Below, piece after piece: positions 7,110 through 33,190 of a DNA stretch of 64,000 nt. The position numbers and the translations under genes are program-made. The stretch lies in assembly GCA_000091205.1 (NCBI GenBank), contig AP006496.2; one strand, given 5' to 3'. The stretch comes from Cyanidioschyzon merolae. Lineage: Eukaryota. The notes beneath the pieces are model-generated. The model had not been told where the DNA came from and made no database searches. It worked only from the letters and a program-made list of their open reading frames with translations. The stretch's first letter is position 1. Each line of letters starts with the position of its first letter.

Positions 7110-8340
7110 TTGGCTCAAACCAGCTCCTTGGGTCTTCTACTGAGCACTGTATGTCGTCTAATGTTCATAGCAGCGTTGAAGTCTGGGATCACGAACTGGA
7201 TGCGTTTATTGTCTCTTATTAAACTCACCAATGCAAGGATCCCTCGAAATGCTGCCCTCGGTGCCATTTGGTGCTCCATCACCTCTCCAAGGTTTCCTAT
7301 TCCCAAAGTGCTCCGTTGCCTTCTCTCCATCTCGACGTTATGAAGGATACACCCCAGCACATCCATTAGATTTTTTAAACACATTTCTTTATGCCCCTAG
7401 GTGACGACCTTATAGGAGCGCGTAGGACTTGCGGAAGAAAGACGTCATGTGTCTCTGTGTACCACCGTGTTCTGAACGCTTCAGTGATTCGCCTAGTGGC
7501 GCGATCTTTACTTTTCACAATAGGAAACACTTCTTCAATGTGGTTGAACCGGAAGCGTACTGACGAATGAAATGCAGCCCTACTCCGGTAGAATTGGGCA
7601 AGGCTTCAATGCGAGGGGAATGGTGAAATTCCAAAAAGTCGAACAGAAGAACACAGCCAGACGTCAGGGAATCGTCTTCAAAGATTCTACGATGTGAAAA
7701 CTGTTGTATGAGCGTTCTCTGGAGTCGAAACTGAGGCCGCAAAAGAAATCCACTGCAGCTGGAGTAGAGAAATTCTTATGTATTTTCGATATCGATTGTA
7801 TATCCAACGGGCGCCCCTCATCGCGAATACTCATATCCACTGTGACGGTTCTGTGTGGAGCAAATCTCGTGGAATGAAAAAAACAACGTTCTTGTGGCTC
7901 ATAGCCGGCGCGATGTTTCAGGGACTGTGTTCTAGTCGCCATTTCGTTCGGACATGGCTGTGAACGATCTAGGACATTTTATGTGACTGTATGCCACTGG
8001 TTTCAGGACCATACGAAAAAGCTGTAGACAAAAACAGTCACCGGTGATGGCTGCTATCGTCGCTTTTTGTTCCCGCAAAGTCGGCAACGGGTCGTGTTCT
8101 ATCACTGACCTCATGCACGCGTCGAGAATATCCGTTTCTTTTCGCGGAGTTCATCTAATTCTTTCTCTAGTGTTCCTCGACCGTTTGAGTGTTGTTCCAT
8201 GACTGACATCAAGAATCAATACAGATCTCCTTCAAATATCCAGTATATAATATATCCTACATGAAATTCGACTTCGATATATACAGTATATTACAACGTG
8301 ATTCCCATCTCTTGCTATACATCGCAGATCGTGTCGAGTA
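7110..8340 (-). mobile_element. decayed, frameshifted copy of a transposon family carrying a Fanzor/TnpB-like gene (relic copy 1)
   Basis: Minus-strand fragment VIPDFNAAMNIRRHTVLSRRPKELV (7115..7384) matches the RuvC-III region [21 protein letters not shown] of the intact gene at 23223..24395. Upstream (7470-7560, minus strand) the fragment FRFNHIEEVFPIVKSKDRATRRITEAF resembles the Tc1/mariner C-terminal motif DLNPIENVWSILK. About 70% nucleotide identity to 31870..33190 in the same order and orientation. Confidence 0.65.
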
Positions 8341-13015: not shown

Positions 13016-13398
13016 ATCGAGGGCTGCGGTCGAGGCGAATCGCTCGATGCCCGGCACGACTGGACAGCAACGTGTAGCGCGTGCTGCTCGCTCAGGCACA
13101 GTTTCGTTGACCCCGGACGTCTGCCTCACGGCTGATCGATATCGTTACGCTTTTCGCGGCGCTTTCGAACGCGTGCTGTCCGTTTCGCGATCCCTGCGAT
13201 GAGCAAGCGGTACGCGATCTTGAAGGAAATGGCACACGCTGGGATGTCGGATCGCCGGCATCGATCTGCGCACGCGCCAGCGCGCCCTGGCGCATGCGTG
13301 CGCAACGGGCGCCTGATCAGCGGAGATTCGTGTTTTTGCTTGTTCGCAGAAGTAGCCCGCGTGCGGTTGCGATATCCTGAACCTGTGTTGCGCTCAAA

Positions 13399-13911
13399 AT
13401 GCCGGAAAAAGCGAGTCATCCGAAATATCTTGATATGGTGAAAGAGGCGATACGGAAGAATTATTCTGTGAAGGGCACAAGCCGACAGAAAATCAAGTCG
13501 TTTATTGAGCAGACGTACCATATTCAGGCCCTGAACAGCATTCTGCGAGCAACACTGGAGAAGGCTGCGACAGAGGGGGTAATTGAGAAGACGAGCGACG
13601 GCTCGCGGTACCGACTCACGAGCAAAGGACGCCTTTCCATGGAGAAGAAGAAGGAGAAAAAAATCCGTAAGCCGGCGAAAGTCACCAAGTCGGCGGTGAA
13701 GAAGGCGACTACTTCGAAAGCGAAGAAGCCGCGCAAGGCGGCCGTCAAAGTTAAGAAAGTCATCAAGCCGTCTATGAAGAAGACTTCGGCTCCGAAAGCG
13801 AAAAAGCTGGCAAAGCCTTCCAAGAAAGCAAGCGGTGCTGTGACGAAGAAGAGCGCTGCGAAACCGGCGAAGAAAGTCTCCATGAAGAAGGCGCCCAAGC
13901 CGAGCAAGTGA
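13399..13911 (+). CDS. linker histone H1
   Basis: ATG start confirmed. The N-terminal winged-helix globular domain HPKYLDMVKEAIRKNYSVKGTSRQKIKSFIEQTY is followed by a long Lys/Ala/Pro-rich tail (KKPRKAAVKVKKVIKPSMKK...). Confidence 0.9.
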   Translation: MPEKASHPKYLDMVKEAIRKNYSVKGTSRQKIKSFIEQTYHIQALNSILRATLEKAATEGVIEKTSDGSRYRLTSKGRLSMEKKKEKKIRKPAKVTKSAVKKATTSKAKKPRKAAVKVKKVIKPSMKKTSAPKAKKLAKPSKKASGAVTKKSAAKPAKKVSMKKAPKPSK

Positions 13912-15438
13912 GACAACTGGGGCTCGCGACCCAGCGATTCACCTCACAGAGGCATCGACGATACAATCCCGCCGGCGTTCAGCGACCTCTCCTCAACAGT
14001 CATTTGCACTCGGACTCTCAATTTCTCACTCCGATCCATGATAAAAAAGTCCCGCGTGGGGTCCGGTTAACCTGCGAGAACTGCCCCTCTTTTCGAATTC
14101 TACCACATGGTGCTTCCACCAGCGGTTTACACGCCGCCGCAGCAGCAGCAGCAGACAGCGCCTTGCACTAGAGCTTCTTCGGCATCGCTCGAAAATCGAC
14201 TGCCGCGTTCGCGACGCTTGCTGCGGTGTGTGCTCAAGCTTGTAGATGGCGCCGCACGGCCCAGATGAGCCAGTAGTCGTCAAGAGCGAAATGCGATGCC
14301 TTTTTCAGTGCTTGGGGGACATACGTGTGGCACGATAATGGCTCCCGACGCTCTGCCGTGTTCGAGTCGCGTATGCAAACAGATCTTCGCCCCGTCTGCT
14401 GCCGGCAAAATTGTTATTCGTTCCCGCAGTGCCTCCAACTGCTCCCAGTGCAAGTCTTTTCGACTCGTGTACAGTGCTTGGGAACGCAGGCCCTGTGCTC
14501 GTCCCAAGAGCCGTTCGGATACGCTAGCAAATCATCTGCGACTGCTTGGGATACTACGTGGGGAAGTATCGTTCTGGTTTTTTCATTCGTACCCAGAGAG
14601 CGTTTTCGCAGGGTCGCTTGTGATCTAAACCGCTCGTGGATGATGTTGGGCGCAGGTTCGCACGCCAGCGCACTGTGTGTGTGTATGTGAAGATTGAGTC
14701 ATAGTCGTCAGAGCGCCCAGCGGAGCGCGTGCTTTCGGTGAAACAGATCGCTTCAAGAATTGGACGCCGTCTCGAGGCCTGCCTGGTGCCTGCTCCACGT
14801 CATCCGAAAGAAACCTTCACATACGTGTTCAGCTCGAATGCTGTATTCGTAGCGTCCTCCTTATCCAATGTCATAATTAGGCCGAAAGACTGATACGTCC
14901 GCCATCAAGTTCTGTTGCCCAGCAAAAGACGTTCCAGGTGGCAGAGCAGAATCGCTTGAGCAGAGCTTTATCGGCTCCAGTCACTGCACGCTGCAAACAG
15001 TATCGATTACGAAGTAGATACACTAAGTAAAATCGAATAATGGAACACCTGTATCGTCTACAAGTTGCCTAGGAAGACCGATTCCGGTGTATCTATACGG
15101 CGCTCCAGCATCACTGGATTGCTTAACCGCACTACACCAGTGCCTTGCTTCATGCTTGGATCCAAACGTTCCCTCCTGGCCGCTGTTTCTTCATCGCATG
15201 GCTTCCGATTTTCAGCACAATGCCCGCAATGACTACGACACGACTTTTTCGATACTTCGCTTAACACAGAGTCTTGGGCGCTGCAGAAGCACGAGACATA
15301 TTCCGGATGTTGGTCGAGGCGTTGAACTCCCGGTGGAGAAAGTGCTTTTGCCCATGACTGCTGGGAAATGCGCACCGCAGTAAACCTGTCACCATAGACT
15401 ACCTTGCCAGCTGACGTGCGGTCAGCTTCACGTCCACC

Positions 15439-16347
15439 ATGTCGTACATTCGGACCTGTTCCTCTCTGTTTCTCAAGCTGCATCATCGTGCACCTCAGCT
15501 CGTGGTGCTTTCATGTCGTCCTGAACTTGTCCAAAGGAATCCTGCACAATCGGCTCCTGCATTCGTTTTACGCTCCGAGCGAAGGAGCATGAGTCCAGCC
15601 TTTGTGTTGAACAGCACGTTCAGCGTCATAGGCCATTACCAAACGACACGACGTATCGGTTATTTCCTTTTTCAACACAGTGAGCAAATTGGTGAATGCA
15701 CGCATCTTGCGAACGTGCAACCCGAAGCGCTGACGACACCAGTACGGTATCATGAACTCCTGCTAAATCTCATTCTCATATGCAATTTTGACGCTCGCAT
15801 ACTCCCTGAATCAAGTGATGAAAGTACGCCCTCTGCACGATACGGCGCCCAGAGCGTCGGCACAGGTCCGGACGGCATTCCTCAATCTGTTGGAATGTCC
15901 CGCGGCGTCTATGATGCCCAGCTGCAGATGATACTGAACGCTGGAAACCATGAGCAGCTTCCTGTGATATCCGTTCGGATCTTTGGATCCTTCATTATGG
16001 TTTGGAGGTACGTCGACGCTCATGATATTGCTGGACCTTGGATGCACGCCCACCACGAAGAGTTTCTTATCACCTACCGTGAACAGTTGGATACGACTCG
16101 CATTGTTCGACTCATGATTCGGTTTCCGATGAATTCGATGGAGATTAAGCCTTCGTTGGTCTGCAACGTTACTGTATGCTTCGTTCCGTTTTCGCCCGGT
16201 CTAGGAGAAATCTTGAGCGAGCTCTACCAATACATTTCGCGGACTCGTTTGAACTCTTCACATTTGCTTCCGGGTGTCCGCCCTAACCCGCTGAGGAGGC
16301 CACACAACATTGTAGACACTCATCTATGGCGATGTAATGAGCATTAA
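15439..16347 (+). CDS. hypothetical protein, no recognisable domain
   Basis: A 302-aa ATG-initiated ORF lying between recognised genes. It has no motif I can name and only moderate codon bias, so it may instead be a decayed element. Confidence 0.25.
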   Translation: MSYIRTCSSLFLKLHHRAPQLVVLSCRPELVQRNPAQSAPAFVLRSERRSMSPAFVLNSTFSVIGHYQTTRRIGYFLFQHSEQIGECTHLANVQPEALTTPVRYHELLLNLILICNFDARILPESSDESTPSARYGAQSVGTGPDGIPQSVGMSRGVYDAQLQMILNAGNHEQLPVISVRIFGSFIMVWRYVDAHDIAGPWMHAHHEEFLITYREQLDTTRIVRLMIRFPMNSMEIKPSLVCNVTVCFVPFSPGLGEILSELYQYISRTRLNSSHLLPGVRPNPLRRPHNIVDTHLWRCNEH

Positions 16348-19300
16348 TGTCACACATGGAAACCACATCCAAAATAAACACCAGAGGAGACGAGGACTCT
16401 CGAATTCGGGAAGGGAGTCGACCGCGCTCTGGATGGCTCTGCTCAGGAACACGTAGTGCTTCAAGATGGAATGTAGGTAGGTAGATATCACGTCTCAATT
16501 ATACATCGGATACGACGTCCGCTGGTCCGAGGCAGAGAGCAACACGATGAGCTTGGACAGCATGAAGCGTCTCTTGCTCTCGTTAACGCATCTCTTTGAA
16601 CTTCGCGACAAACTCCATCTCGTCCGTAGCCAGCAAGCCACTTGCCTACGTCCGCACCCGAAGAATCCCTTCATGTAATCCTCACTGTTCTGAGCCTCAA
16701 TAGTGACGCTATAATGACCACAGCGTGCGCTTCATGAAGCCCCGGTCATTGGCTTGAACATGGTTTTGCTTGTTGAGGTTGTTTTGAAACTTTCTGGCAA
16801 CTGCGGCGTACATGTTCCGATGGATGATGTGTAACGGCGAGGCGTCGGGGTAGTTTTGGAAGCGTGTGTACAAATCTCTAATCCTATGAACAAGCCGAAT
16901 GGCATCTTCTATCCGAAGCATCCGTTGCTGCAAGGAGGTTTGACAGAAGATTTCCTGAGGAATGCGGACAACTGGCAGCCCAGCGTCCGCAGCGCCCCTG
17001 AGCAGTTGCTTGGCGAGGTGTGTCAAGGAGAGGTAAGCATGGCGAGCTTCCGCCGAGGTGGAAGCTGCGCGAACCTCAACGGCCAGCTGCCTCATCCTTT
17101 TTGGAAGACTCACCAGCTTGATACGTTTTCTGTGGAAAGCCTCGACAACGAGTGCAGACTGATCTATCCGCTACCACAATTTTTTCTTCTTGTCCCTCCT
17201 CGCCCACTTTTCGGAAGGATCCTTCCCCTCTTCGTCTAGTGGTTTCCTCTCCCTCTCCACAAAGCGGTGTTGGTACCGATGCGGTCGATATACTTCATAT
17301 CTGTTTTTTCTCTGGGCTGAAACAGTCTCGGCGATAGATGGCAATGAAGCTCATCTATTCTGCGTGAGTGTCGATTTCTCCTGAAGCACCTCTTTGCCAC
17401 CGTATCTGCGGGCAGCGCGCTCGCGGTGCGGGGCACGCTTTCCCCTCCCTGATGCGCTCGAGCGGAGGAGCAAACCATCAGCTCAGAGCTGGTTACCATA
17501 GAAAAACACTCGTCCGAGAACGGTCGAGCGAACGACTTCTCGACTGATCTGTGAGCATGAAAGCGGAGTCTGCCGACAGAAAATTTACCTTCAACTGTTG
17601 TGGACCGAGGAGTTCAGGCTAGCACGAAGAACAGCTCACTACCTATTGCTGCAGCATACACCCAGACCGCCTTGGATCTCTACAAAGCGACGTTGTCTAA
17701 GTGCATAACAAAAGAATACGGGATGATGAAAGCACGTGGCGTGCTCCAGCGAACGATGAGATGTAGAAAGCCCGTCTCTTTGGGGATACTAAATTGAACA
17801 CACATCTGAGTCGCCGCTGGGGCTGATCTTGTCGACATTTGCGCTAGAATCTTCTGTAAGAGTAGCTTTGGCCCCATCTTCGCGTACCCGTATGCAAAGG
17901 TGTACCATTTCATCCGAGTGAAGTCGCATTGAGTGAGACGAGCTCCCTTGCTTCCAGTACAGAGTGTTCGATTTCCAGCACGAAATGGAGAGTATACTGC
18001 ACAACAAGCTATCCTCTCTCAGAGACGCACGTTTCTCTGTTGTTTATCTACCCTTCGTCACCTTTCGCATCTAAGGTCCCAAAAATTCACATCCCGTAGC
18101 TTCTCTGGAAGCTTTTCTGAGAGAAATACGCAGTGGAACAGACTGACGAAGAGATTAACCTGTCCATAGAGTTTGTTACGTTCTGTTCTAGGCACACGAC
18201 GTATAATGCTTGTTCTCCGAGAAGGATGGTTCATCCACCTGCTGCCCTGTGAGTGACCGACGTGCTCCATTAAGGCCGCCTTTCGTAAGCTCTCCGTGAG
18301 CATAAAGAGTCTTTTCGCGACTTTTGTCCGATCTACATGATACATTCCTTGTATTGGATAAGTGCAAGAAAAACAAACAAAATCGGAAAGGGCGTGCTGT
18401 TACAGGTACGCCAGAATTTACTGCCAAAGTGCACATGCTGTTTCAGTTCGTTTTCGCCCCGGCGCGCGAGCATATCGATCTTGCAACTGTCCAACGATGT
18501 AGATGCACTCATTTTCGACGCGAAGTGCAAAGAAAATGCGTACTGTTCGGAACAAGCCAACCTACAGTGAACGTAAAGCCAACGAGGGAGCCGCTCTGAA
18601 TCACATCGTGCAGCCTCGGCGTGAAAGAAACGAGAGGGGCGACGTCCCGATTCCGTATCTTGTGCATACGATCGAACTACTCCGACGCGTGGTATACGGC
18701 TCTTCATGCTCTGTCAGTGGCCTTCGTGCAGGAGAACGAACAATCTTGAAAGAGATTAGATCGAAGTATTCTCCGGAATAGGCCCTAAACAAATCGGTAC
18801 GCAGTCTATCCGCAGCATCTATCGAGCAACGTGTGCTGTACCTGATCATCCTCTGGTGCGGCTTGTGCTGGAGATGCGCAGCACTCTCGCGGCGTCCGCC
18901 ATAAAGTTCTGCTTTGAGCGCTTCTAGATATATCCTCGACAATGGAGCACCATGCCCACCGCGCGAGTCTCAATGGCACGTGAATGCCTCTCAGCCGTAC
19001 TGAATGTCCACTGCTGCCTACCACACAAATCCACTAACCAACTTGCGAGCTAAGGCCATAGGTGAAGGCCCGCGCTTCACTGGCATGTAATGCCGTGCCG
19101 AGGCAATCATCAAAAGGGGCGCCACTCGCGCGTTCTGCCCCGCTTCAGTGCGCTCCACCGCGCCGAAAAGCAACTCAGCGAGTACACGGTCAACCGATTG
19201 CGGAGATCTCTTCGTCGGCACAAGCCAGTGCTCGTGAGGCGGAGTCTCAATTTTAGGGCCCCATTTGGGCCCATAAAACGGCGAACTCTAGATATTGGAA

Positions 19301-19417
19301 GAAACGTTCAACTTCCTCCGTTTCTCCTGCGATGCACACAGCGCAGGTCAAGAGCAAGCATCCGTAAGCATTTGTACGGCACAAGGATTCTGGCAGATTT
19401 CGCACTCCTCCACAAAT

Positions 19418-20938
19418 TCACGAAAACTCATCAGCATTCACGTGCATCTGTATGGCACAGAGATCCTCGCTCAACTCGCACACCTCGACGAGGCCAAGAA
19501 ACCCATCATCATTCACAGGGGTCGCGCGTTCCCACTGCTTTGCTCCCCCGTACTGCACCTCCGCCGCAGTCACCAAATCGTAGAGCAACGCGTCTTCTGA
19601 CCCAGAGCAGGCCTCGACGATAGTGAGCGCTTCGAGCGCAGCTCGATCAAGCGCGTCTTCAGCTCCGGTTGCACTAGCAGCTTCTGCAGCGCAGCTGGGC
19701 CCAAGCACGACAAGCGGGAGCGCATGCAGCTCGGAACGCCAGTTTGCACACTCCGGATCAAGACACTTCTGAAACATTACGCTCTGATTCAGATCAACAA
19801 CATAGATCACATGATTCGATTGGTGCTGCCGACGAACGCGTGCGCAGTAGCGATGATTCGCCATCGAAAGTAGCAGCGTGCGTGAGGAGGCGAAGTACAT
19901 CCAGTTCCGGATACGGGGCCACGTGGAGGTATCCTTCGAGCGCGCATACTCGATGACATAGTCTTCAATTGCTGGAAAAAGAGAGCGAAGACGGCCTGGT
20001 TCCAGACCAGAAACCGGCATTGGTGCACTCGGCGTATGCTTCGCAGAGTGCACGGGCGGGGCAGTGCCGCCCGTCCGCGGCAGCGGCAGCTCGAGCGAGC
20101 ACGACGTTTCATAAAATGCATTCGTCAGCATTGCAGTGCGGAGAACTTGGGCCCGCTGCTCCTCGGTGGACAAGGCACACAATATCGAGCCCATCCATCT
20201 TGCGGTCGGCTCGAAAACCTTATCGCGTCCAAACTTTTGAGAATACGGTAGTCGAAAGCACCGATTCCGCGAGTAAACACTGATATCAATGAAACCCTCT
20301 GGCAGCTCGTTCTCAAGCCGCGGAAGAACTCTGGTCCTCACAAAACAGCCAACAGCCATGTTATCATGCAGCAAAACTCCGGGAAATATCAGGTGCCGTG
20401 AGTACTTCGCCGGTATGCTAGAGTCCAGTTCCAGAACCTCGAGAAACCGACTCCCAACGTCCGCGCCTGCGCACTCTCGCACAGCCTCTCGGACAACTCG
20501 AACGAGACGCTCAACCGCAGCATCAAGCTGCTGAACAACTCGGCTGCGGTGCTCGTCCGCCCAGTCCGGGCAAAGGCGTTGTTCCAGGTCAAAGAAGAGC
20601 TTGCACGCGAAGCCCTCTCTGAGTACTTCGCTGAAGCAACGCGGAACGTAACGCCAGCTCTTGTAAAGAAACGAGTCGAGCGTGCCGACGAAGTAGTCCC
20701 GTCTGCCCGTTGCGTCTAGCTCACGAGCGAAAACAAACAGAGCCTCCGTGAGGCCAGAGTGCCGCAGCGCCCGCTCACGTTCCTCCGAAAAAGCTAGTGC
20801 GGAACTTTGCACTTCAAAGTGCCGGAAAAGTGCACGAGCGCTCCCGGTGCTCTGATTGCGCGCTTGGCTCAGGAGTCGGGCTTGGTTCGTCGGTGTGAAA
20901 TCCCTCCCATAAAACGTATACGTAGAAACGCCCGACAT
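19418..20938 (-). CDS. PrimPol-type primase-polymerase (archaeo-eukaryotic primase superfamily) with a UL52-like zinc finger
   Basis: ATG start. AEP motif I is DxE in KLFFDLEQ, motif II is SxH in YSRHLIFPGV, and motif III is IDISVYSRNRCFRLPYSQKFG. The C-terminal C-H-C-C finger reads YCARVRRQHQSNHV...FQKCLDPEC. Confidence 0.8.
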   Translation of the reverse strand: MSGVSTYTFYGRDFTPTNQARLLSQARNQSTGSARALFRHFEVQSSALAFSEERERALRHSGLTEALFVFARELDATGRRDYFVGTLDSFLYKSWRYVPRCFSEVLREGFACKLFFDLEQRLCPDWADEHRSRVVQQLDAAVERLVRVVREAVRECAGADVGSRFLEVLELDSSIPAKYSRHLIFPGVLLHDNMAVGCFVRTRVLPRLENELPEGFIDISVYSRNRCFRLPYSQKFGRDKVFEPTARWMGSILCALSTEEQRAQVLRTAMLTNAFYETSCSLELPLPRTGGTAPPVHSAKHTPSAPMPVSGLEPGRLRSLFPAIEDYVIEYARSKDTSTWPRIRNWMYFASSRTLLLSMANHRYCARVRRQHQSNHVIYVVDLNQSVMFQKCLDPECANWRSELHALPLVVLGPSCAAEAASATGAEDALDRAALEALTIVEACSGSEDALLYDLVTAAEVQYGGAKQWERATPVNDDGFLGLVEVCELSEDLCAIQMHVNADEFS

Positions 20939-21064
20939 GGGCGTTGTATTAGTCGCTTGTATCCACCCAGCGAAGCAACCGTTGGGAAGCGCGCGAAAAC
21001 AGCGCGCATGGAGATTTTTGCTAAGTCTTTATATACTGATTCGCGAATTGACTCATTCGATTTC

Positions 21065-21148
21065 GGGGGGCTGGCGCAACGGTAGCGCGTTTGACTCCAG
21101 TCCGCAGTGGCGATCAAAAGGTTATCGGTTCAAATCCGGTGTCCCTCA
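21065..21148 (+). tRNA. tRNA-Trp (anticodon CCA) with a 12-nt intron one nucleotide 3' of the anticodon
   Basis: Manual cloverleaf. Acceptor GGGGGGC (21065-21071) pairs with GTCCCTC (21141-21147, two G:U pairs). D-stem GCGC/GCGC with loop AACGGTA. Anticodon stem TTTGA (21090-94) pairs with TCAAA (21114-18), and the loop is CU-CCA-G with an intron tccgcagtggcg (21101-21112) at the canonical 37/38 position. Variable loop AGGTT. T-arm ATCGG-TTCAAAT-CCGGT. Discriminator A; no encoded CCA. Confidence 0.6.
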
Positions 21149-22678
21149 CATTTTGCAAGCTCGTGCCGCTTTGGCACTAGAGGTACTGCACTACGCAGCA
21201 AGACGCTCGGGGACACTTCCTGCGGTTCGCAGCCTCAGAGCTGTGTACCGCGCATACTGCACTCAATGGAGTTGTTAGCGGGGGCGACTAACGCTCCAGA
21301 GGTTGCTTTCGTTGCTACGGTCTAGGCTTGCTGAAACTGACCAGACTCGCTCGGGTGCGCGAACGTTACCAGCGGTCAGTTTAGAAACAGTCGTTTCGCT
21401 GCGGACGCTTGGACCTTCCGCCAGCCACGGTACTGTGAAATGCCCACGGCATAGAGGCTTGTTCGACCCAGTGAACAACCGGGAGCCAAGCTATCTTAGG
21501 CACCTGCTTCAATGTTGTTGCGTAGAGCCTGACTCCTCCGGTTGTGCGAGAGCAGCCAATAACTAGTGGAGGGAGCAGCTCTGCTCTCCAGATGCGTCTG
21601 CGTTCCAGTGGCCCAAAACTTTTCTTTCCATTGGGGCATGGTTTTCAATCGATCCAGCGGCATGTGTCCGTATAGCGCCGCGTCTACCGATACTACTTGC
21701 TCCGAGGTTGGATGCGACGCCACCACGGTGACCGCACTGGAACAGAGCAGCCCCGCCGTGCCATTGCGGGTGTCGGGCCGAAGCTCTTAAACCAAATGCC
21801 CTCGGGCAGAATCCGCAGGGCCCCTGGATCTGCAAGAATGCTGAAGGGAAACGCACTCGCGAGGCCGCTTCGACGGCAGCGCGGCAAGCGACTCGGACAT
21901 GACGTCGAGTGGCCAGCCTTCAGTGACGCGCCCTGTCCGTGGCTGGGTATCCAACGCGGCAGCGCCAACCCTGCAAACCCCGGACAGCGCTCGGGTAGCA
22001 CACGCGTCACTGTGATTCTACGTATGTATCCAAATGCGCTCGGGGTTGCCAAAACCCGCAATATCCATCCGCGCTCGGTAACACGGCTGCATCGAAACGC
22101 GCGCGTTGCCTAGTCCTGAATCTTTGAAACACCTGAACCTCGTCGCGGGCTGAGAGCTAATGAAAGCGCCGCGCAACGCCTAGGAACTTGTTCCCCATTC
22201 TGACTTTCGGTATTTAGTGTGTGCTGCTCCACCCCGGGGCCGCTGTACACAACCATCCTTTCTGTCCAGCCGAAGACGCATTGCCTTCGATGTGATCGCA
22301 ATAAAGCACTGGAATACAAAGGGAAAGCAGCAGCAGCAGCAGATGATGGTGACCGTGTTCAACGTCTAACAAAGTTTCCTCATGCCTTTACTGGAGCTTT
22401 CACTGCACACGGCGAGGGATATGTGGGCGCCCCGTCAGCGTGCCCGTCTGGCTCAGCTACTAGCCCTCGCACGGGACGCATGATACCGTTGGAGTTTAGA
22501 TCGACGCTACACCATTGCAATGCAGCAACAGCCGCTGTCTATTACACTGAAATTTACCTGGTCTCAAAACCGTATCCCACTTTCCGCACGATGGACATAT
22601 ACTACAAGCGCGTTTCTGGTAGCCGTATATTTGACAAGGGTGCTTTCCTGGCACGAAAAAAAGTAATGAACAGAGTTC

Positions 22679-23167
22679 TCAAGCTGTGCAGTTCGTTGAA
22701 CTGCCAGAGCCCGACGGATCCTCGCGCAGATGACCAACTACTTCGTATTTTTGGAGAAACTTCTCAAACCACTGGTACAGCGTCTCTTTTTCGTGCTCCG
22801 TCAAATCATCAATAGCGCCACAGACTTCGCCAGGTTCCGTGCTCATCTTTGCGAGTCCTCTGCTCGCGTTCTTCCCAGCAAAGACAAAGTACGGCCCACC
22901 GGGCCCATAAAAAGACCTCGCATCGGAGACGTCGAAAACTTCAGCCCGCGCCCCAGGCCGTGGCTGTACGGCCACGTAGATCGGCTGCCCTTTTGTTCCG
23001 TTGTACTGAGCAAGCTCTTCGCCAGTGAACGCCCTCGGTGCCGGCCGTTCATGGTGCCGTGGCGGCGGCTGCACTGCAGGGTTCTCAACGTGGTTACCCA
23101 TCAAGCGAAGCGCACCCAGCACGAATACACCGCCACCCAAAAGTAACCAGAGTCCAACTGCATCCAT
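22679..23167 (-). CDS. membrane-associated progesterone receptor component (PGRMC/Dap1)-like cytochrome b5 heme/steroid-binding domain protein
   Basis: The first ATG is residue 47 of track ORF 22679..23305 (MDAVGLWLLLGGGVFVLGALRL = N-terminal TM). The MAPR domain reads FTGEELAQYNGTKGQPIYVAV...VFDVS...FYGPGGPYFVFAGKNASRGLA. The 46 codons upstream of the ATG are translation of the transposon 3' flank. Confidence 0.8.
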   Translation of the reverse strand: MDAVGLWLLLGGGVFVLGALRLMGNHVENPAVQPPPRHHERPAPRAFTGEELAQYNGTKGQPIYVAVQPRPGARAEVFDVSDARSFYGPGGPYFVFAGKNASRGLAKMSTEPGEVCGAIDDLTEHEKETLYQWFEKFLQKYEVVGHLREDPSGSGSSTNCTA

Positions 23168-23222
23168 GATAGCGTCGAAGCGTTCACCAAACGCCGTTCT
23201 AAAGTAGAACGACGCCGACCGT

Positions 23223-24395
23223 TTACAGTAGAGGAGAGAAACCCGCCCTAGACAAGAAGTCTCCAACTGATGTGCAGACGCCTCCCGTCTTTTTCGACGG
23301 GTCACCCACTACTGCTTCCAACTTCTTCTCATATAGGTCGACTTTGAGAGGTTGTCCAATAAAGTTCATTGTTGTTGACTCTGGAGGTCTCTTCTCCAGC
23401 ACCGCACATCTCCTTACATTGATGGCGGCGTTTAAGTCCCGGTTCACGAATTCCATACGTTTCGTCCCGTTGATTGTACTTACTAATGGAAGGAGTCCAC
23501 GAACTTTCGCCCTCCTTTCCATTTGCTCCTCTGCCAGCTGTCCGTACTTTGCTATTTCCTCGGGGCTCCGTTGGCACTTTTCCATCGCCACTCTCTGAAG
23601 TGTGCAACCCAGCTCGTGGTGTGTGTACGATGTTCGAAACTCATCTATAGGTATCGTGACGAAACGCCTTGCGCACTCCTTGTACGCTCTCGTCGTTGGA
23701 GCTGGTGTACACCCTTTTTGGGTCTTCCATCGCCTTGCTCCGTACGCTACTACGAGCCCTTGACGGTCGTCCTCCTTCAAGGCGCTCAACTGGTTGAAAG
23801 AATTCGCGAACGCCCGCCGCTTACCACAATACAAATTCATTCGCAAACGAGCCCACCGGGACTTGGTATACTCATCCCACAGTGCATCCCAATGAGCAAC
23901 GCGAAATTCTATGAACTCCCGAAGAGCTTTAAAGTCCGCTCCGCGGCTCGTCACCTCGCTCAAAGTTTCCAGGCGATCCTTCATTCCTGCATTCCATGTC
24001 TCGATTTTCTTCCTTGCATTCACTATATCGGATTCTCGATAGTATATTGCTCTCGAGAATCTCAACAGATGCACGTCTTTCTGACGTAAGTTGCCGTCAG
24101 TACCATCTTCCTCACGCTTCGGTGCTACGATGGTTATGATATTGGTATTCCCAGGGTCCGCGCCAACGACAAAGTCGCTATCCCGCACTTTCTGCGTCGC
24201 AGGTTCCGCCTCCTTCTTCTCTTCATGCTTCGCCGCGTAAACGATAACGTGGTTATCCTGCACTTTCTGCGTCGCAGGATCCGCCGTCTTCTTATCTTCA
24301 TCCTTCCTCACGGACGAAGCCGAAGGCGGGACTGAACGATCTGCCTTCAACCGTCGATAGTGTACACACATGGCTACTCCATCGGGTTCGATCAT
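23223..24395 (-). CDS. TnpB/Fanzor-like RuvC-fold (OMEGA-type) nuclease, intact 390-aa copy
   Basis: Track ORF 23223..24422 starts at GTG; the first ATG is residue 10 (24393-24395). Motifs (track numbering): [16 protein letters not shown] at 84-99 is RuvC-I-like GxDxGxx[23 protein letters not shown] at 245-266 matches the TnpB bridge L.YKAE..G..V..V.P.YTSQ preceding the zinc finger. The finger itself is degenerate (HH...C...C instead of CxxC...CxxC). [16 protein letters not shown] at 326-341 is the RuvC-III hallmark D.NAA.NI. A candidate RuvC-II acidic cluster is LKEDD (215-219). Confidence 0.7.
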
Positions 24396-24477
24396 CCCAG
24401 TGAAAAACTTTTGCTTGATCACTTTGAGAGGTTTGAAATCGAATATATTCTTCCAGTACGTCTTCCGGTTCTTACCG

Positions 24478-25326
24478 GTTAACTTGCGTCAGAAAGACGT
24501 GCATCTGTTGAGATTCTCGAGAGCGATATACTATCGAGAATCCGATATAGTGAATGCAAGGAAGAAAATCGAGACATGGAATGCAGGAATGAAGGATCGC
24601 CTGGAAACTTTGAGCGAGGTGACGAGCCGCGGAGCGGACTTTAAAGCTCTTCGGGAGTTCATAGAATTTCGCGTTGCTCATTGGGATGCACTGTGGGATG
24701 AGTATACCAAGTCCCGGTGGGCTCGTTTGCGAATGAATTTGTATTGTGGTAAGCGGCGGGCGTTCGCGAATTCTTTCAACCAGTTGAGCGCCTTGAAGGA
24801 GGACGACCGTCAAGGGCTCGTAGTAGCGTACGGAGCAGGGCACTGGAAGACCCAAAAAGGGTGTACACCAGCTCCAACGACGAGAGCGTACAAGGAGTGC
24901 GCAAGGCGTTTCGTCACGATACCTATAGATGAGTTTCGAACATCGTACACACACCACGAGCTGGGTTGCACACTTCAGAGAGTGGCGATGGAAAAGTGCC
25001 AACGGAGCCCCGAGGAAATAGCAAAGTACGGACAGCTGGCAGAGGAGCAAATGGAAAGGAGGGCGAAAGTTCGTGGACTCCTTCCATTAGTAAGTACAAT
25101 CAACGGGACGAAACGTATGGAATTCGTGAACCGGGACTTAAACGCCGCCATCAATGTAAGGAGATGTGCGGTGCTGGAGAAGAGACCTCCAGAGTCAACA
25201 ACAATGAACTTTATTGGACAACCTCTCAAAGTCGACCTATATGAGAAGAAGTTGGAAGCAGTAGTGGGTGGCCGGTCCAAAAAGACGGGGAGGCGTCTGC
25301 ACGTCAGTTGGAGACTTTTTGTCTAG
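24478..25326 (+). pseudogene. 5'-truncated inverted copy of the Fanzor/TnpB-like gene
   Basis: It starts at the codon matching residue 111 ([10 protein letters not shown]) of the intact copy and lacks the RuvC-I region. There are point differences (GARRW vs GAGHW) and an indel altering the C-terminal 20 residues. The apparent N-terminus MATPSGS... (24370-24477) is antisense of the intact copy's 5' end. Confidence 0.75.
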
Positions 25327-25634
25327 GGCGGGTTTCTCGCCACTACTGTAAACGGTCGGCGTCGTCCGACTTTAGAACGGCGTTCGGTGTCGGTGGCCCT
25401 TTTACGAGGTTTCTTCCGACGCAACCTCCAGCTTTTGAACAGTTGACCGCGAACCGACACCCGCATCCGTTTTTTTACACAACACAACCTGAGCAAAAAG
25501 TTTGCAGAGAGTCTTACACGTTACGAAAGCGAAATATGTTGGTCCGAGCTACTTGTGCCCTGAAATCCTCGGATAATAAGCAAATACACCACGCATGGAA
25601 AAGTTGAATCTGCGTCTATTCGAACGCACTTTGG

Positions 25635-28343
25635 TTAGACATTTCCCGGGCGAGATTCGGAGCAGGCCCAGATGCGTCCAGTGCTGACATCCTGAAGCAG
25701 CTGTTGAACAGCATGGAGAACACGCGGACTTGTTGCGTGGGCTTGATTGGGACTACCAGCTGCAGCGGTGCTCGCCACGATACCAACCTGGCGCACGATA
25801 TGCTGCAGTCGCACATAGCGCCTCGCAGGGCATGCATCGCGTATAGGGAGCTGGAGCGTCGCAGCGCTTTCCAGAGAGGCCTCCGGTGGAAGCGCTCGCG
25901 CCTGCAGAAAGCGCCGAATCTTTCGTGCACGGGAGAGGATGGCGTCGGGCATCCCGTTCGCGCGGGCACAGGCCAGCGCGTAGGAGTCCAAGCAGGGCGC
26001 CCCTTCAGACAACTTGTACAGCGCGGTCAAGACCACGTCGTCGTTCTGATCTGGAGCATCACCGGTCTGGCGGTTTTCCTGCACGAGCACTTCAAGTTTG
26101 AAGAAGCGCAGCCGCGAGTTCGCGTGAGCTTGCGCGTAGAGTGTCCCGGTCACCTCATGGAAATGGGTCGCAAATAGCACCGTCATTTGCCCCGTGACGT
26201 TGGTTGCCAACTCTGAAAGCACCGCTGCCGCAAGTGCCCTTCCGTCTTCATCGGAAGTGCCTTTGCCGAATTCGTCAACAATAGCGAGCGACCTGGAAGT
26301 GGCGTACCTGAGCGTCTGCGCCATTTGGATGCAATCGTTCATGAATGTTGATGTCTCGCGGCCGGTGGAATCGAAACTCTTCACTCGGGCAAATATCCGG
26401 TCGGTCACGCCGATTCGGGCGCTACGCGCCGGCACGTAGGAGCCAACCTGTGCCATGTGTACAATCAACGCAACTTGGCGCAGAAGCACGCTCTTGCCGC
26501 TTGCGTTTGGCCCTGTGACGACACAGACATCCCCGCGCCTAACAGAGAGACTGTTAGGAACGAAAGAGTCCACGGTGAGCTCTTGAATCGGGTGGCGAGC
26601 GTCGATTACGTCGATGTGACAGGCTGATTCTGCCCCGAGGACTTGTGGACAAGTCCACTCATAGCGCATCGCAGAGAGGGCGAAGCTGAGCCAACAGTCG
26701 ATCTCTGCCAGCAAGTCGCATGTGCGACTAAGCACTGGTATCGTGGGTATCACGGCGGCCTCGAGATCTCGAATGATGCTCTTCTCGAGGTCGTTGATGG
26801 CCCCGGGCAGATCACCGAGCTCCTCATCGAGCTGACGCGTTCTGTCGTTCTTCACATATGCATCAGTATCGGTGTCGAGCGCGTGCTCCAGAGAGGCATC
26901 GGATTCCATCTGGGCAGCGTCTGAGCGGGAGATCTTCATCACATAGCCGAGGCGCGGATGAAACTGTACACAGATCGACCGCTCCGTGGCGGACGACCCA
27001 AAATACCTGCTCTTCTCCGATTGAGCCACGCTCTCGAGAAAACTGTCCAGAGATTCAAGGGCTAATCTCATATTATCAAGGTTTTCATCAAAGCCGGTCT
27101 TGACGGCTGGATTCCAGCCCGACTTGGATCCACTCATGTCGATACATGCCCCGATTCGTGTCGCGACGCTTGTGTACCATTCCGGGTCGAGCACGGGTGT
27201 CAACTCTTGCGCATTTTCTTGCAGAAAAGCGCTTCTCTCGCGCCAAACAGGCAACACGATTTGAACCAAGTCGGAGAATCCATTAAAGAGCCCCGCGACT
27301 GCCACGTTGCATCCGTGGAGCGCTGCCCAGTCTTCCGCAGTCGCTGCGCCCGAAACCAAGCGCCTCCAAAGATTTTGTGGATGATGCACAGCTTTCAGGA
27401 GCTTTCTGAACAATATCATGTCGATGCTGGCCAAGGCGCCGGCCAGGGCCTGAACCACTTCGAGACGCTCTCGAATGCGCGCAGGGTCACAGATTGGCTG
27501 CGTTAGAATCTCGCGGATTTTTCTCTGTCCGGGCGCCGAGGCCCCGAAGCTGCTAATGATCTGGTAAAGCGTGAGCCCGTGTTGATGGACTCGAGCGCCT
27601 GACCTAGGCGCGGAAACCTTGGCCGGTAGGACCCTCAGTTCTCGCAGAAGACTCATCGGCGATATAGCTAATTGCTCCATATAAAAGGGCTCTGCGCGTA
27701 CGGTGTGGATATCAACATCACAGCGCATCGCTAGAAACGACAGCAGCGCCCCTAGGCAGGTCTGCCCGACCGGCCCCTGATCATCCAATGGTGCTCGCCG
27801 GTCCGGAGACGAGCTCCCGCTTACATCTACGCTCAATTGATGCTGAGCGAAGGCGTCTACAGGATTTTGCCACCAGCGAATAGTTTCTTCTATGCGCTGA
27901 GGCGCGACATCATCCGCGGCGAGAAGAACCAGCGGCCCGCCGCCATCAGCGAGTTCGAGGCAATCGCCCAGTCCACCGGAAACGGCGGTGAGTCTTTCAG
28001 CGGGGAAAGCTTCGATTTGCTGGACTTCGCTGCGGTGCATGTCGCGGACAGCCTGTGACGCTACCCGCGTTAGCATCGCCCTGAACTCGTCGATGGCGTT
28101 TGCGGGGGTTAAAATAAGGTTCGGCTCGATCGCTCGAAGGGTGCGCTCGGTTTGCGAAAATGGCGCCGAGTCTCCTATCTCACAAAAGCGTATCACAAGC
28201 GATATCGTCGAGCACCATGCAATGCCAACACGCTGCTTCCGCACCGTCGTCATAAGGAAGATCTCTTCGCCTCCGTCAGTCTCATCGATCAAACTCTGAC
28301 GGGTTGGGGCTCCGCAACCCAGAGAATGCATAGTCGAGCTCAT
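25635..28343 (-). CDS. MutS homolog of the MSH4/MSH5 type (no domain-I mismatch-binding region)
   Basis: ATG start, 902 aa. Walker A is TGPNASGKSVLLRQVAL, Walker B is DEFGKGTSDEDG, the ABC signature region is STFMND, and the C-terminal segment THFHEV is present. The N-terminus begins with a connector-like segment (GIAWCSTISLVIRFCEI) rather than a mismatch-recognition domain. Confidence 0.8.
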   Translation of the reverse strand: MSSTMHSLGCGAPTRQSLIDETDGGEEIFLMTTVRKQRVGIAWCSTISLVIRFCEIGDSAPFSQTERTLRAIEPNLILTPANAIDEFRAMLTRVASQAVRDMHRSEVQQIEAFPAERLTAVSGGLGDCLELADGGGPLVLLAADDVAPQRIEETIRWWQNPVDAFAQHQLSVDVSGSSSPDRRAPLDDQGPVGQTCLGALLSFLAMRCDVDIHTVRAEPFYMEQLAISPMSLLRELRVLPAKVSAPRSGARVHQHGLTLYQIISSFGASAPGQRKIREILTQPICDPARIRERLEVVQALAGALASIDMILFRKLLKAVHHPQNLWRRLVSGAATAEDWAALHGCNVAVAGLFNGFSDLVQIVLPVWRERSAFLQENAQELTPVLDPEWYTSVATRIGACIDMSGSKSGWNPAVKTGFDENLDNMRLALESLDSFLESVAQSEKSRYFGSSATERSICVQFHPRLGYVMKISRSDAAQMESDASLEHALDTDTDAYVKNDRTRQLDEELGDLPGAINDLEKSIIRDLEAAVIPTIPVLSRTCDLLAEIDCWLSFALSAMRYEWTCPQVLGAESACHIDVIDARHPIQELTVDSFVPNSLSVRRGDVCVVTGPNASGKSVLLRQVALIVHMAQVGSYVPARSARIGVTDRIFARVKSFDSTGRETSTFMNDCIQMAQTLRYATSRSLAIVDEFGKGTSDEDGRALAAAVLSELATNVTGQMTVLFATHFHEVTGTLYAQAHANSRLRFFKLEVLVQENRQTGDAPDQNDDVVLTALYKLSEGAPCLDSYALACARANGMPDAILSRARKIRRFLQARALPPEASLESAATLQLPIRDACPARRYVRLQHIVRQVGIVASTAAAGSPNQAHATSPRVLHAVQQLLQDVSTGRIWACSESRPGNV

Positions 28344-31649: not shown

Positions 31650-33190
31650 CCTAAGCGGACTTGAGCGGCAGCGCCTCGCTTCTATGCAGGGCTTGTAGCA
31701 GGCAAAACGCGCCAATACTTATTTTGTAAAACGAAAAATGCTTCGTGGACATGCAGGATAAACTAATACCGATGCGCAGACGCCTAAGAGCGTTTTTGGA
31801 CCAGTCGCCTGCTATCGGCTTCAGTTTCTCCTTGCACACTTCGAGCATCAGAGCCTGCCTCACAAAGTTGTATCGAGTCGGCTCCTGTGGTTTCATCTTC
31901 AGCACCGCACATCTTCTCTTATTGATGGCGGCGAAGTATCAGTTTGCGATCTCTTTGCATTCATTGACGCTGCTTGAGCTCACCGATGGAGGGATTCCAA
32001 GAACACTTGCCGTCTTTGCCACTGTACTCTCGTCATCGTCCTGTTGGGCAAACACTGTTCCTGACCCATTTCCCCTCCTCTGCTTCTTTATTTGATCTTC
32101 TCCGTTCGGCTTTAGTCGACAAGAGGATTTTTTCGTTCTTTTCCGGCAGTCGGCGATGTCGGGCCTCGAAAATCCTCGGCGTCCATGTCCATACCTTCTC
32201 CTTCGGTTTCTTATTTCTTCAAATCAACGCACTTGCTTATGCCCTTAGATGAAGACATTCCCTGCGGGAGAAGGGCTTGCGGACGGCAGACATGGTATGC
32301 CCCACTGTGTCGCCGTGTGCTGAACGCTTCAGCGATTCGCCCAGTGCAGCGATTATTGCGTTTCACGATAGAAAACACTCCTTCGATGGCATTGAAGCAC
32401 GTAGAGCACCGAGGAAGGAAAAGCAGCTCTATCCCTATAGAACCGGCAAAATCCCGAACGCAAGGGGAATGGTGAAATGTCACCTGACTTCAGGGAGAAG
32501 CCTTCAGTGATTTGGCAAAGCGAGTGTGATTGTGTGAGCCTTCTCTACGAGAAAGACTGCGGCCGCCAAAAGAATCCGCTGCATCTAGAATCGATGATGA
32601 TTTCCGAGTTATCTTCGAGTTCGATCGGATATTCAACGGGCTCGCTGCTCCTGGACTATCCGAGCACGCTCCGACCGTATCATCCAAAGGAAGTCGCATC
32701 GATTGAAGAAACAAACCGACGTCTCTCTGCTGCATATCGATACTACCTATCCAGGCACGTTGTTGTAGTTACGATTTCGGTGGAAGATGGCCGTGCGTGG
32801 AACTGGACCCCATTTTTGCGACTGTATCCCAGTATTTTTAGGACAACAGGAACAAGCTATCGAGAAACAGAGACGCCCATGGTGGCTACTTTAGTCGCTT
32901 TCGCTTTCAGTAAAGTCATCGACGAGTCATTTTCTACCATTGGCGGCAAGCACGCAATAAGAATACCCGTTTTTGGCGCGGAGCGCATATGCTTCTTTCT
33001 TTCCGTGTTCCTATATCATCTCTGTATTGTTGCATGACTGATCTGAAGGAGAAAAGTAGTCCTCCTTGAGCTGTTCAGTGCAGAATATATCCTACATGCA
33101 ATTCGTCTAGGATATATACAGTACATTCCAGCATGATTTCGATCCCATCCTATACATCGCAGCTGGGTTGGAGCGTAAATGAGTTGAGAC
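31650..33190 (-). mobile_element. decayed copy 2 of the Fanzor-carrying transposon family
   Basis: Minus-strand fragments YFAAINKRRCAVLKMKPQEPTRYNFVRQALMLEVCKEKLKPIAGDWSKN match [48 protein letters not shown] of the intact gene. ELLFLPRCSTCFNAIEGVFSIVKR (32211..32483, minus strand) resembles Tc1/mariner LPPYSPDLNPIENVWSILKR. The copy is colinear with 7110..8340. Confidence 0.65.

Follow-up and report, generated by a model that had tools for sequence, protein, structure and literature searches.

The locus and its reading frames

The window analysed here (64,000 nucleotides of contig AP006496.2, from the Cyanidioschyzon merolae assembly GCA_000091205.1) carries on its minus strand an open reading frame of 390 codons, beginning with an ATG and free of internal stops (23223..24395); counted from a GTG at 24422, the frame is 399 aa long. 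With 306 homologues in a protein search, the best at E = 7e-211, it cannot be attributed to chance. Situated upstream of a cytochrome-b5-like host gene (ATG at 23167), it is separated from this gene by 24 nt; an adjacent 902-aa frame is identical to MSH5 of C. merolae 10D (XP_005537328.1 / BAM81292.1). A trypanosomatid or oomycete source, to which GC content and genes free of introns had pointed, was rejected on the strength of this exact MSH5 match. An environmental assembly carries the same locus at 99.4% identity. The exact 390-aa sequence is absent from a protein collection in which the NCBI-annotated MSH5 of C. merolae 10D is present, so the C. merolae 10D annotation probably omits the frame.

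A first-pass annotation had read the frame as an intact gene for a TnpB/Fanzor-type RuvC nuclease of unusual, compact architecture. Its motif reading was sound, in that RuvC-type motifs do occur in order along the translation (the codons were checked), and the assignment to the TnpB/Fanzor type is borne out by the evidence given below; the claim of intactness is not. A large inverted repeat surrounding the frame had been overlooked. Its two arms (23185..24092 and 24481-25389, located by repeat finding) are each about 0.9 kb long, are separated by a spacer of 388 nt (24093-24480), and are about 99% complementary over the inner 809 nt and 93% over the outer 102 nt.

A truncated CMe-1A element and its head-to-head partner

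What is this frame a part of? In 2013, Bao & Jurka (Mob DNA 4:12; PMC3627910) described CMe-1A, a Fanzor1 element of C. merolae present in about 150 copies that are about 80% identical to a 3169-bp consensus, lacking TIRs and encoding a 734-aa protein, which in complete elements is preceded by a 635-bp 5' region resembling TE-N2_CMe (PMC3627910). When the window was compared with this consensus by blastn, positions 24484..23192 matched consensus nt 1945-3169 at 87% identity, and in a tblastn comparison the 390-aa sequence was 78% identical to the CMe-1 protein across residues 347-723. Collinearity of the window with CMe-1A was tested specifically, and the alignment is collinear. We refer to this sequence (23192..24484, minus strand) as copy A. 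It amounts to the 3' 39% of the element: because it begins at consensus nt 1945, the 5' 61% is absent, and, having neither the 635-bp 5' region nor the whole 734-aa frame, copy A is a truncated member of the family and not a complete element. It departs from the consensus about as much as the 150 or so CMe-1A copies are reported to do.

The same conclusion emerges from the start of the frame. The ATG corresponds to the internal Met377 of the 734-aa protein, and CMe-1 homology continues upstream of it for 31 codons in frame (24396..24488, minus strand, matching consensus residues ~349-376 in translation), until a stop is reached at the breakpoint (near 24485-24488); a six-frame profile match likewise covers 24488..23226. 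The gene, whose ATG integrity and full-length conservation had been taken to favour function, is not intact, residues 1-346 of the 734-aa parent being missing. Only about 80 residues precede RuvC-I (about 85 in the earlier reading), and the shortage of WED/REC sequence reflects 5' truncation and not a compact or non-canonical architecture. Proteins encoded by longer family members reach ~200-350 aa further in the N-terminal direction than the 390-aa frame (up to 593 aa), and longer or near-full-length copies of the element were found that span consensus nt 6-3152 and nt 670-3145. The other end of the frame is also damaged: a 1-nt deletion near 23286-23294 (AAAAAGAC-GGGAGG, minus strand) puts the last ~25 residues of copy A out of frame with respect both to the consensus and to the partner copy described below, so that the 390 codons represent CMe-1 residues 377 to ~723 followed by a frameshifted tail.

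A further difference from the consensus lies just N-terminal to RuvC-I, where copy A has two tandem copies of an acidic/lysine-rich repeat of about 75 nt (25 aa; 24158..24306, minus strand; repeat finding and alignments). The published consensus has one such unit, and other members have up to about five.

The partner, copy B (24481..25389, plus strand), is a shorter 5'-truncated CMe-1A copy that runs from consensus nt 2262 to the 3' end and is joined head-to-head with copy A; by blastn, 24481..25361 is 88% identical to consensus nt 2262-3145. It contains a partial reading frame (24370..25326, plus strand) that lacks RuvC-I. Alignment of the 3' ends showed that both arms of the inverted repeat terminate at CMe-1A's own 3' terminus, for which GAACGGCGTTYGGTG is a candidate terminal sequence. 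The arms share this terminus, and beyond it their flanks diverge, which disfavours a single inverted duplication of a segment together with its flanking DNA. An inversion of the twin-priming type is disfavoured too, since the two arms represent one and the same portion of the element. Judging by the environmental contig, the 388-nt spacer may exist in alternative, flipped isomers.

Fanzor1 homology and the catalytic residues

How secure is the relationship to RuvC nucleases of the Fanzor type? The first-pass annotation had proposed a search with the Pfam models OrfB_IS605 and OrfB_Zn_ribbon and with Fanzor profiles, together with a structural comparison. The Pfam part was negative: hmmscan of the frame and of its partner in copy B gave nothing relevant (only a chance Umbravirus_LDM match, E = 0.095), with OrfB_IS605 and OrfB_Zn_ribbon both unmatched, and a scan of six longer homologues gave no Pfam match of any kind, although one distant relative had a sub-threshold PF07282 match (E = 0.0023) and some longer homologues a weak precomputed match to PF26935 (DUF8286). 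Searches of the PDB with a single sequence or a shallow profile also gave no meaningful match. Only a deep profile, built from relatives found by exhaustive search, reached solved Fanzor1 chains, namely those of Parasitella (PpFz, 9cf0, E = 4e-21), SpuFz1 (8gkh, E = 6.8e-11) and GtFz1 (9cer, E = 1.1e-5). The structural comparison agreed. An AlphaFold model of the frame (pLDDT 77, pTM 0.71; a model based on a shallow 34-sequence alignment had a pLDDT of 36.8 and, being unusable, was excluded from the fold search) gave SpuFz, PpFz and GtFz as the top seven Foldseek matches (probability 1.00, E = 8e-10 to 7e-7); Cas12 variants, Fanzor2 and TnpB ranked below them. Together with the CMe-1 identity, the profile and fold matches confirm that this is a Fanzor1-family sequence.

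The likeness to 8gkh, 9cf0 and 9cer is one of fold and of motif order: a WED strand (IETDGV), the DPG motif of RuvC-I, a REC2 helical hairpin, an alternative glutamate in DE[FY]xTS, RGLL, and the NRD of RuvC-III follow each other in the same succession. Sequence identity to the solved enzymes is a mere 11-16%, and neither CxxC pair of the zinc ribbon is present in the clade to which CMe-1 belongs. The solved Fanzor1 proteins are characterised nucleases, whereas CMe-1 is known here from its sequence and copy A is devoid of the N-terminal REC/WED half; with only ~80 residues ahead of RuvC-I, it has no counterpart of the REC/WED lobe that longer family members possess and that aligns to PpFz residues 641-982. 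Prokaryotic TnpB (ISDra2, 8h1j) and Cas12f share the RuvC fold and the order RuvC-I, RuvC-II, TNB, RuvC-III, and are matched less strongly by Foldseek (E = 1.2e-3 for 8h1j, ~3e-3 to 1e-2 for Cas12f chains). Canonical TnpB proteins have a D-hydrophobic-G motif in RuvC-I and a glutamate about 50 residues before the zinc finger (PMC10711439), in contrast to the DPG motif and alternative glutamate found here; these two features and the lack of a Pfam TnpB domain match set the frame apart from the prokaryotic TnpB (IS200/IS605) group.

The catalytic residues could be assigned from a deep alignment of 52 relatives, which are 26-72% identical to the frame (all but one of them 26-46%). The RuvC-I aspartate is D80 (24156..24158, minus strand), which lies in GADPGN, the DPG motif defined for Fanzor RuvC-I in PMC10711439. 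In PpFz and SpuFz its counterpart is the DPG/DPN motif; neither D80 nor G82 varies across the alignment, and P81 is present in at least 90% of it. The RuvC-III aspartate is D320 (23436..23438, minus strand), aligning with the NRD of the solved Fanzor1 chains, and position 319, D320, N322, A324 and N326 are each at least 90% conserved. These two are the same residues as the D89 and D329 of the earlier reading, which had been numbered from the GTG rather than from the ATG. The RuvC-II assignment needed more substantial revision. A KEDD cluster some 140 residues beyond RuvC-I had been put forward (the distance is in fact ~127), but the catalytic residue is the glutamate E252 of IDEFRTS (23640..23642, minus strand), which is invariant in the deep alignment and aligns with DEFRTS of PpFz and DEYKTS of SpuFz. 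It conforms to the alternative glutamate of Fanzors (Ealt as defined in PMC10711439), whose place is six residues ahead of the one where the zinc finger has its first cysteine (PMC10711439, PMC10530073). No glutamate occurs in LVVAYGA, the strand in which the canonical residue would sit. From the alignment to solved Fanzor1 active sites, D80, E252 and D320 would be expected to converge in space. In the numbering of the CMe-1 consensus they are D431, E603 and D672, and this residue map for the family, with the alternative glutamate in place of the KEDD cluster, is a by-product of modest value.

Between Ealt and RuvC-III, the zinc-ribbon (TNB) segment (23439..23621, minus strand) is degenerate, with HHELGC in place of the first CxxC and VSTING in place of the second. 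The absence of CxxC...CxxC had been correctly noticed, but the residues are spaced HH-x3-C-x9-C and not HH-x4-C-x10-C, and the loss is no peculiarity of this copy: the published CMe-1 consensus shares the degenerate segment along with the other motifs and likewise lacks the C4 finger, and 51 of the 52 clade members have no CxxC there, the HH itself not being conserved.

The 3' end of the element (23185..23340, minus strand) is a candidate omega-RNA scaffold region, in which fold prediction gives a long imperfect stem across the stop codon and a terminal hairpin. The 3' 256 nt of the element fold with z = -3.0. A consensus stem across the stop codon was predicted in five copies, with compensatory change in only 5 of its 45 pairs; covariation was negligible and its term unfavourable, and the five 3' ends are too similar for covariation to be informative about an omega-RNA. 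Our literature search found no report of RNA-guided, TAM-dependent dsDNA cleavage by CMe-1.

The fate of the fragment

By its homology, the 734-aa Fanzor1 protein of the parent CMe-1A would be an omega-RNA-guided RuvC endonuclease, and both the nuclease and the RNA-guided activity are attributed to it here on the strength of sequence comparison. Copy A retains only residues ~347-723 of this protein: of the WED domain just the final strands, then the RuvC domain including the REC2 helices, and the degenerate TNB segment. Lost are the entire N-terminal REC/WED half, which is expected to hold the guide RNA and the target, as well as the native start codon and everything upstream, and the C-terminal tail is out of frame. 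How, then, has the frame stayed open? Measured against the CMe-1 consensus, dN/dS is 0.26 for each of copies A and B, indicating that most of their divergence accrued in a coding lineage under selection, and this explains the open frame. Between the two arms there are just four differing codons, so the corresponding ratio is no guide to selection acting on the fragment. The frame would therefore have been inherited from a lineage in which purifying selection acted until recently, the fragment itself probably not being maintained. We are very confident that the locus is a dead, 5'-truncated CMe-1A copy lying head-to-head with a shorter truncated copy in C. merolae 10D, and copy A most likely does nothing. 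On the other side of the ledger, the frame is open and its triad intact, and translation from Met377 could in principle yield a truncated protein.

Such a protein might have been domesticated as a RuvC-only product, acting for instance as a nuclease that needs no guide, or regulating active CMe-1A copies in a dominant-negative way. The 390 open codons, the intact D80, E252 and D320, the transcriptionally accessible position close to the cytochrome-b5-like gene and the recurrence of the locus in the environmental assembly speak for this. However, the 346 N-terminal residues are gone, the C-terminus is frameshifted relative both to the consensus and to sister copy B, homology passes straight through the ATG so that there is no dedicated start, the product is missing from the collection that includes C. 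merolae MSH5, and the low dN/dS, having been measured against the family consensus, was inherited from the active lineage; moreover, some 150 similar decaying copies exist (PMC3627910). We therefore consider exaptation improbable. A role of another kind, as the source of a hairpin RNA (dsRNA) that silences the CMe-1A family, is suggested by the geometry of the head-to-head pair, whose arms and 388-nt spacer would form a long hairpin if transcribed through. Nothing points to transcription running through the pair, though, and arms that stop at the element's 3' terminus are as expected of two insertions or a rearrangement rather than of a selected structure. To our knowledge, C. merolae has no canonical RNAi components, which also counts against this idea, and we regard it as very improbable.

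The first-pass idea, an intact and compact Fanzor lineage naturally without WED/REC and with a novel HH/C metal site, drew on the ordered Fanzor motifs and on the His/Cys-containing segment that stands in for the CxxC pairs. It is almost certainly wrong: the collinear alignment with CMe-1A and its consensus, taking in homologous codons above the ATG, refutes it, the same family includes longer copies and near-full-length ones, and the His and Cys residues are not conserved in the clade. Nor is the lineage uncharacterised, the family having been published for this very genome in 2013. Copy A is one of many decaying copies of a family already described, and hence an ordinary one, not a new compact nuclease. 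For the locus itself little of consequence follows beyond its dead-copy status, and the appropriate annotation is a Fanzor1 (CMe-1A) pseudogene fragment.

A zinc-ribbon-less branch of Fanzor1

The wider clade may be of more general concern. At E <= 1e-3, an exhaustive search returned 1444 cluster representatives. Among named relatives from beyond the Cyanidiales, the closest are VCa-1 and VCa-2 of Volvox (Bao & Jurka), scoring 28.3 and 70.7 bits, respectively, with the family profile (VCa-2 as a partial sequence), and proteins of Tetrabaena socialis (PNH08370.1) and Haematococcus lacustris (KAJ9522957.1), both among the best 150 matches of the exhaustive search. These volvocine and other chlorophyte proteins are only 30-40% identical and come from green rather than red algal hosts, but they have the same zinc-ribbon-less DEFRT...RGLLWC.ST...NRD layout. 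Because CMe-1 is a named Fanzor1 in the founding paper, we treat the loss of the C4 finger as a clade-level deviation and not as grounds for exclusion. CMe-1, its chlorophyte relatives (the volvocine ones included) and numerous unnamed metagenomic proteins form a large branch of Fanzor1 that lacks the 'strictly conserved' C4 ribbon. The branch nevertheless evolves under purifying selection (dN/dS about 0.26) and keeps its triad of DPG, alternative Glu and RD invariant. It is conceivable, and we put it forward tentatively, that active, intact members of this branch are zinc-ribbon-free RNA-guided nucleases that motif screens based on CxxC have overlooked. The existence of a sizeable ribbon-less algal Fanzor1 clade bears, to a modest degree, on searches for Fanzors by CxxC pattern and on the engineering of minimal nucleases.

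A truncated copy of a published Fanzor1 element

The genome of C. merolae was reported to contain one Fanzor1 family, CMe-1A, comprising about 150 copies with roughly 80% identity to a consensus of 3169 bp, which encodes a 734-aa protein, CMe-1 (Bao & Jurka, 2013; PMC3627910); the element has no TIRs, and according to the same paper its TSDs are undetermined and its TE class unknown. We aligned the published consensus, both as DNA and as protein, to the window. Nucleotides 24484..23192 (minus strand) matched consensus nt 1945-3169 at 87% identity, 24481..25361 (plus strand) matched nt 2262-3145 at 88%, and the ORF under study (23223..24395, minus strand; 390 aa from its ATG; 399 aa if counted from a GTG further upstream, at 24422) was 78% identical to CMe-1 residues 347-723. 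Because both DNA and ORF align to the published consensus, the locus is one of the roughly 150 CMe-1A copies already catalogued for this genome, and the family is hence already known.

The first-pass annotation had read this minus-strand frame as an intact TnpB/Fanzor-like gene of compact, non-canonical architecture. The frame is indeed open, with the motifs in the order described, and its 306 homologues (best E = 7e-211) show that it did not arise by chance. It is not an intact gene, however: the N-terminal 346 residues are missing, the tail is frameshifted, and the ATG at 24395 corresponds to the internal Met377 of CMe-1 (context FTGMIETDG). Upstream of this ATG, the frame runs on for 31 codons homologous to the CMe-1 consensus, and stops exactly at the breakpoint between this copy (copy A) and an oppositely oriented one (copy B). 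The ~80 residues before RuvC-I, taken earlier for a compact N-terminus, are the remnant of 430 in the consensus after 5' truncation, plus one extra unit of a tandem repeat (two acidic/lysine-rich units of 75 nt, or 25 aa, at 24158-24306, minus strand, just N-terminal to RuvC-I). There are two such units in copy A, one in the consensus and up to about five in other copies; with a number so variable across the family (from 1 to about 5), the repeat resembles a disordered, expandable linker joining the last WED strand to the RuvC domain. At the other end, a 1-nt deletion near 23286-23294 (minus strand; AAAAAGAC-GGGAGG) shifts the frame of copy A, so that the consensus tail GGRSKKTGRRLHVSWRRFV is exchanged for a frameshifted one of 26 residues; copy B retains the consensus C-terminal frame.

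The homologues are mostly metagenomic proteins, many of them longer (up to 593 aa, with ~200 extra N-terminal residues), and at one homologue locus an in-frame stop sets off 82 more homologous upstream codons; there was therefore a longer parent protein, with widespread decay among copies. Thus, the Fanzor call was correct and the motifs are real, but the 'intact gene with compact architecture' is an artefact of viewing a 5'-truncated copy in isolation.

Head-to-head copies and other remnants in the window

The ORF forms one side of a palindrome-like structure of 2.2 kb (23185-25389) that had escaped the first-pass annotation. Its arms (23185-24092 and 24481-25389) are ~908 nt each and are separated by a 388-nt spacer; the ORF of copy B (24370..25326, plus strand; 318 aa) is without the GADPG strand, its homology beginning at NLRQKD. 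Both arms finish at the same element terminus, GAACGGCG followed by a shared TTYGGTG, beyond which the flanks differ. A segmental inverted duplication including flanking DNA fits less well with this divergence past the shared terminus, and the structure is best read, from these alignments, as two 5'-truncated CMe-1A copies placed head-to-head, copy A at 24484..23192 (minus strand) and copy B at 24481..25389 (plus strand). Complementarity between the arms reaches ~99% in the inner 809 nt but only 93% in the outer 102 nt, and this difference hints at gene conversion within the inner part.

At 99.4% identity to window 13222-24092, an environmental contig (ENA ERZ27247235) represents the same locus. 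In it, the 388-nt spacer is inverted relative to the flank (contig 1-1411 against window 23978-25389), and the arm is a mosaic, with GH as in copy B and the frameshifted tail as in copy A. Gene conversion or flip-flop inversion between the arms may account for these features, as may ambiguity in short-read assembly. The contig also shares the adjacency of the element 3' end to a cytochrome-b5-like host gene on the same (minus) strand, whose ATG (23167) lies only ~24 nt downstream (interval 23167-23192); this gene starts MDAVGLWLL..., and the ORF listed for it (22679..23305) runs too far, into the element. On the other side, a neighbouring 902-aa ORF (25635..28343, minus strand) exactly matches MSH5 of C. 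merolae 10D (XP_005537328.1).

Elsewhere in the window there are a CMe-1A-related C-terminal piece (7058-7438, minus strand; 46% aa identity), an internally deleted remnant joining consensus nt 869-969 to 2833-3092 (31768-32234, minus strand), and a 105-nt match to a 5' TE-N2_CMe-like region (4864-4968, plus strand). A far older Fanzor1-like copy, heavily decayed and in several frames, occupies 15264-17170 (minus strand), with profile matches at HMM positions 27-168, 333-431, 452-511 and 555-596. At 26-35% tblastn identity to CMe-1, its divergence is too great for an ordinary CMe-1A copy, and it may belong to another, ancient Fanzor1 family of C. merolae, for which the 2013 paper lists only one.

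Fanzor1 homology and the catalytic residues

Fanzor identity was tested independently of the 2013 paper. Neither a Pfam scan of the ORF nor a single-sequence PDB search with it found anything. Against published Fanzor1 proteins, a family profile scored 70.7 bits with Volvox VCa-2 (a partial sequence), 28.3 bits with VCa-1 and less than the latter with Chlorella and Chlamydomonas families, the alignments passing through IETDGV, DPG and DEFRTS. An exhaustive profile search with a cutoff of E <= 1e-3 returned 1444 cluster representatives (many 600-740 aa long), from which a deep alignment of 52 relatives was made (identity to the ORF 26-72%, and 26-46% for all but one). D80, G82 and E252 are invariant in it, and R319, D320, N322, A324 and N326 are each kept in at least 90% of the sequences. 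The deep profile matched three solved structures, the Fanzor1 proteins of Parasitella parasitica (9cf0, E = 4e-21), Spizellomyces (SpuFz1; 8gkh, E = 6.8e-11) and Guillardia (GtFz1; 9cer, E = 1.1e-5), with DPG, DE[FY]xTS, RGLL and NRD pairing with their counterparts. AlphaFold gave a pLDDT of 36.8 with a shallow alignment and 77.1 with the deep one (pTM 0.71, RuvC core > 90); the top seven Foldseek matches in the PDB were SpuFz, PpFz and GtFz (E = 8e-10 to 7e-7, probability 1.00), followed by Cas12 variants, Fanzor2 and ISDra2 TnpB. Membership of the TnpB/Fanzor family, as first proposed, is thus borne out by both HMM and structural matches.

What defines a Fanzor is a DPG motif in RuvC-I together with an 'alternative' glutamate in RuvC-II, placed six residues ahead of the first zinc-finger cysteine, the canonical Glu position being taken by an inert residue (PMC10711439, PMC10530073); the metal ligands of SpuFz1 are D383, N385, E541 and D606 (PMC10432273). 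In the ORF, the canonical position falls in a strand, LVVAYGA, that has no Glu, and the spacing from E252 to the His standing in for the first Cys is exactly six residues. The KEDD residues (207-210), earlier the candidate for RuvC-II, precede the canonical-position strand and, to judge from the alignment, do not include the conserved catalytic one, the invariant glutamate being E252. The aspartates D89 and D329 of the first-pass annotation (399-aa numbering) are D80 and D320 in the 390-aa ORF. Aligned to solved Fanzor active sites, the predicted triad is D431, E603 and D672 in CMe-1 consensus numbering.

Coding history and loss of the zinc ribbon

Measured against the consensus, dS is 0.30 and dN 0.077 for copy A (dN/dS = 0.26), and dN/dS for copy B is likewise 0.26. 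Most of the 12-13% divergence therefore arose while the sequence coded for a selected protein, which accounts for the 390-codon fragment still being open and agrees with the long retention of coding capacity described for the family by Bao & Jurka (PMC3627910). Over their shared region copies A and B differ in only four codons, too few to gauge selection on the fragment. In solved Fanzor1 structures, the REC/WED lobe holds guide and target. Since the 346 N-terminal residues (REC/WED) are gone, the tail is frameshifted and there is no native start, the copy A ORF is most likely a non-functional relic. By family membership, the parent CMe-1A presumably acts like other Fanzor/TnpB elements, in which case an omega-RNA derived from its 3' end would direct the RuvC nuclease to DNA that matches element-flanking sequence. 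The 3' 256 nt of the element folds better than shuffles (z = -3.0), and five copies, too similar for covariation, have in common a terminal hairpin and a long stem that spans the stop codon; the omega-RNA at this end is a candidate.

The first-pass annotation was right that CxxC...CxxC is missing from the ORF, and a His/Cys pattern exists there, each gap being one residue shorter than described (HH-x3-C-x9-C, not HH-x4-C-x10-C). The two CxxC pairs are exchanged for H..L and S..N. The published CMe-1 consensus has VSTTSDG in the zinc-ribbon segment, and in 51 of the 52 aligned proteins the stretch from the alternative Glu to RuvC-III contains no CxxC, so loss of the C4 zinc ribbon is old and clade-wide, and not a degeneration of copy A. 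The clade consensus is VDEFRTT...VRGLLWC.ST...NRDLNAA.NI, and named members come from the chlorophyte algae Tetrabaena socialis and Haematococcus lacustris, which agrees with the 2013 Fanzor1 set, where the nearest relatives are the Volvox families.

The 1444 cluster representatives make up a large Fanzor1-like clade without the C4 zinc ribbon, in which DPG, the alternative Glu and RD are retained (as conserved in the deep alignment) and to which CMe-1 adds the Cyanidiales. Pfam recognizes it only weakly, as DUF8286 (PF26935). A literature search found no paper on such a clade; an earlier report is possible. Its existence conflicts with the original motif definition, in which the C4 zinc finger is 'strictly conserved', and pattern searches for Fanzors that require CxxC (PMC10711439, methods) would miss it.
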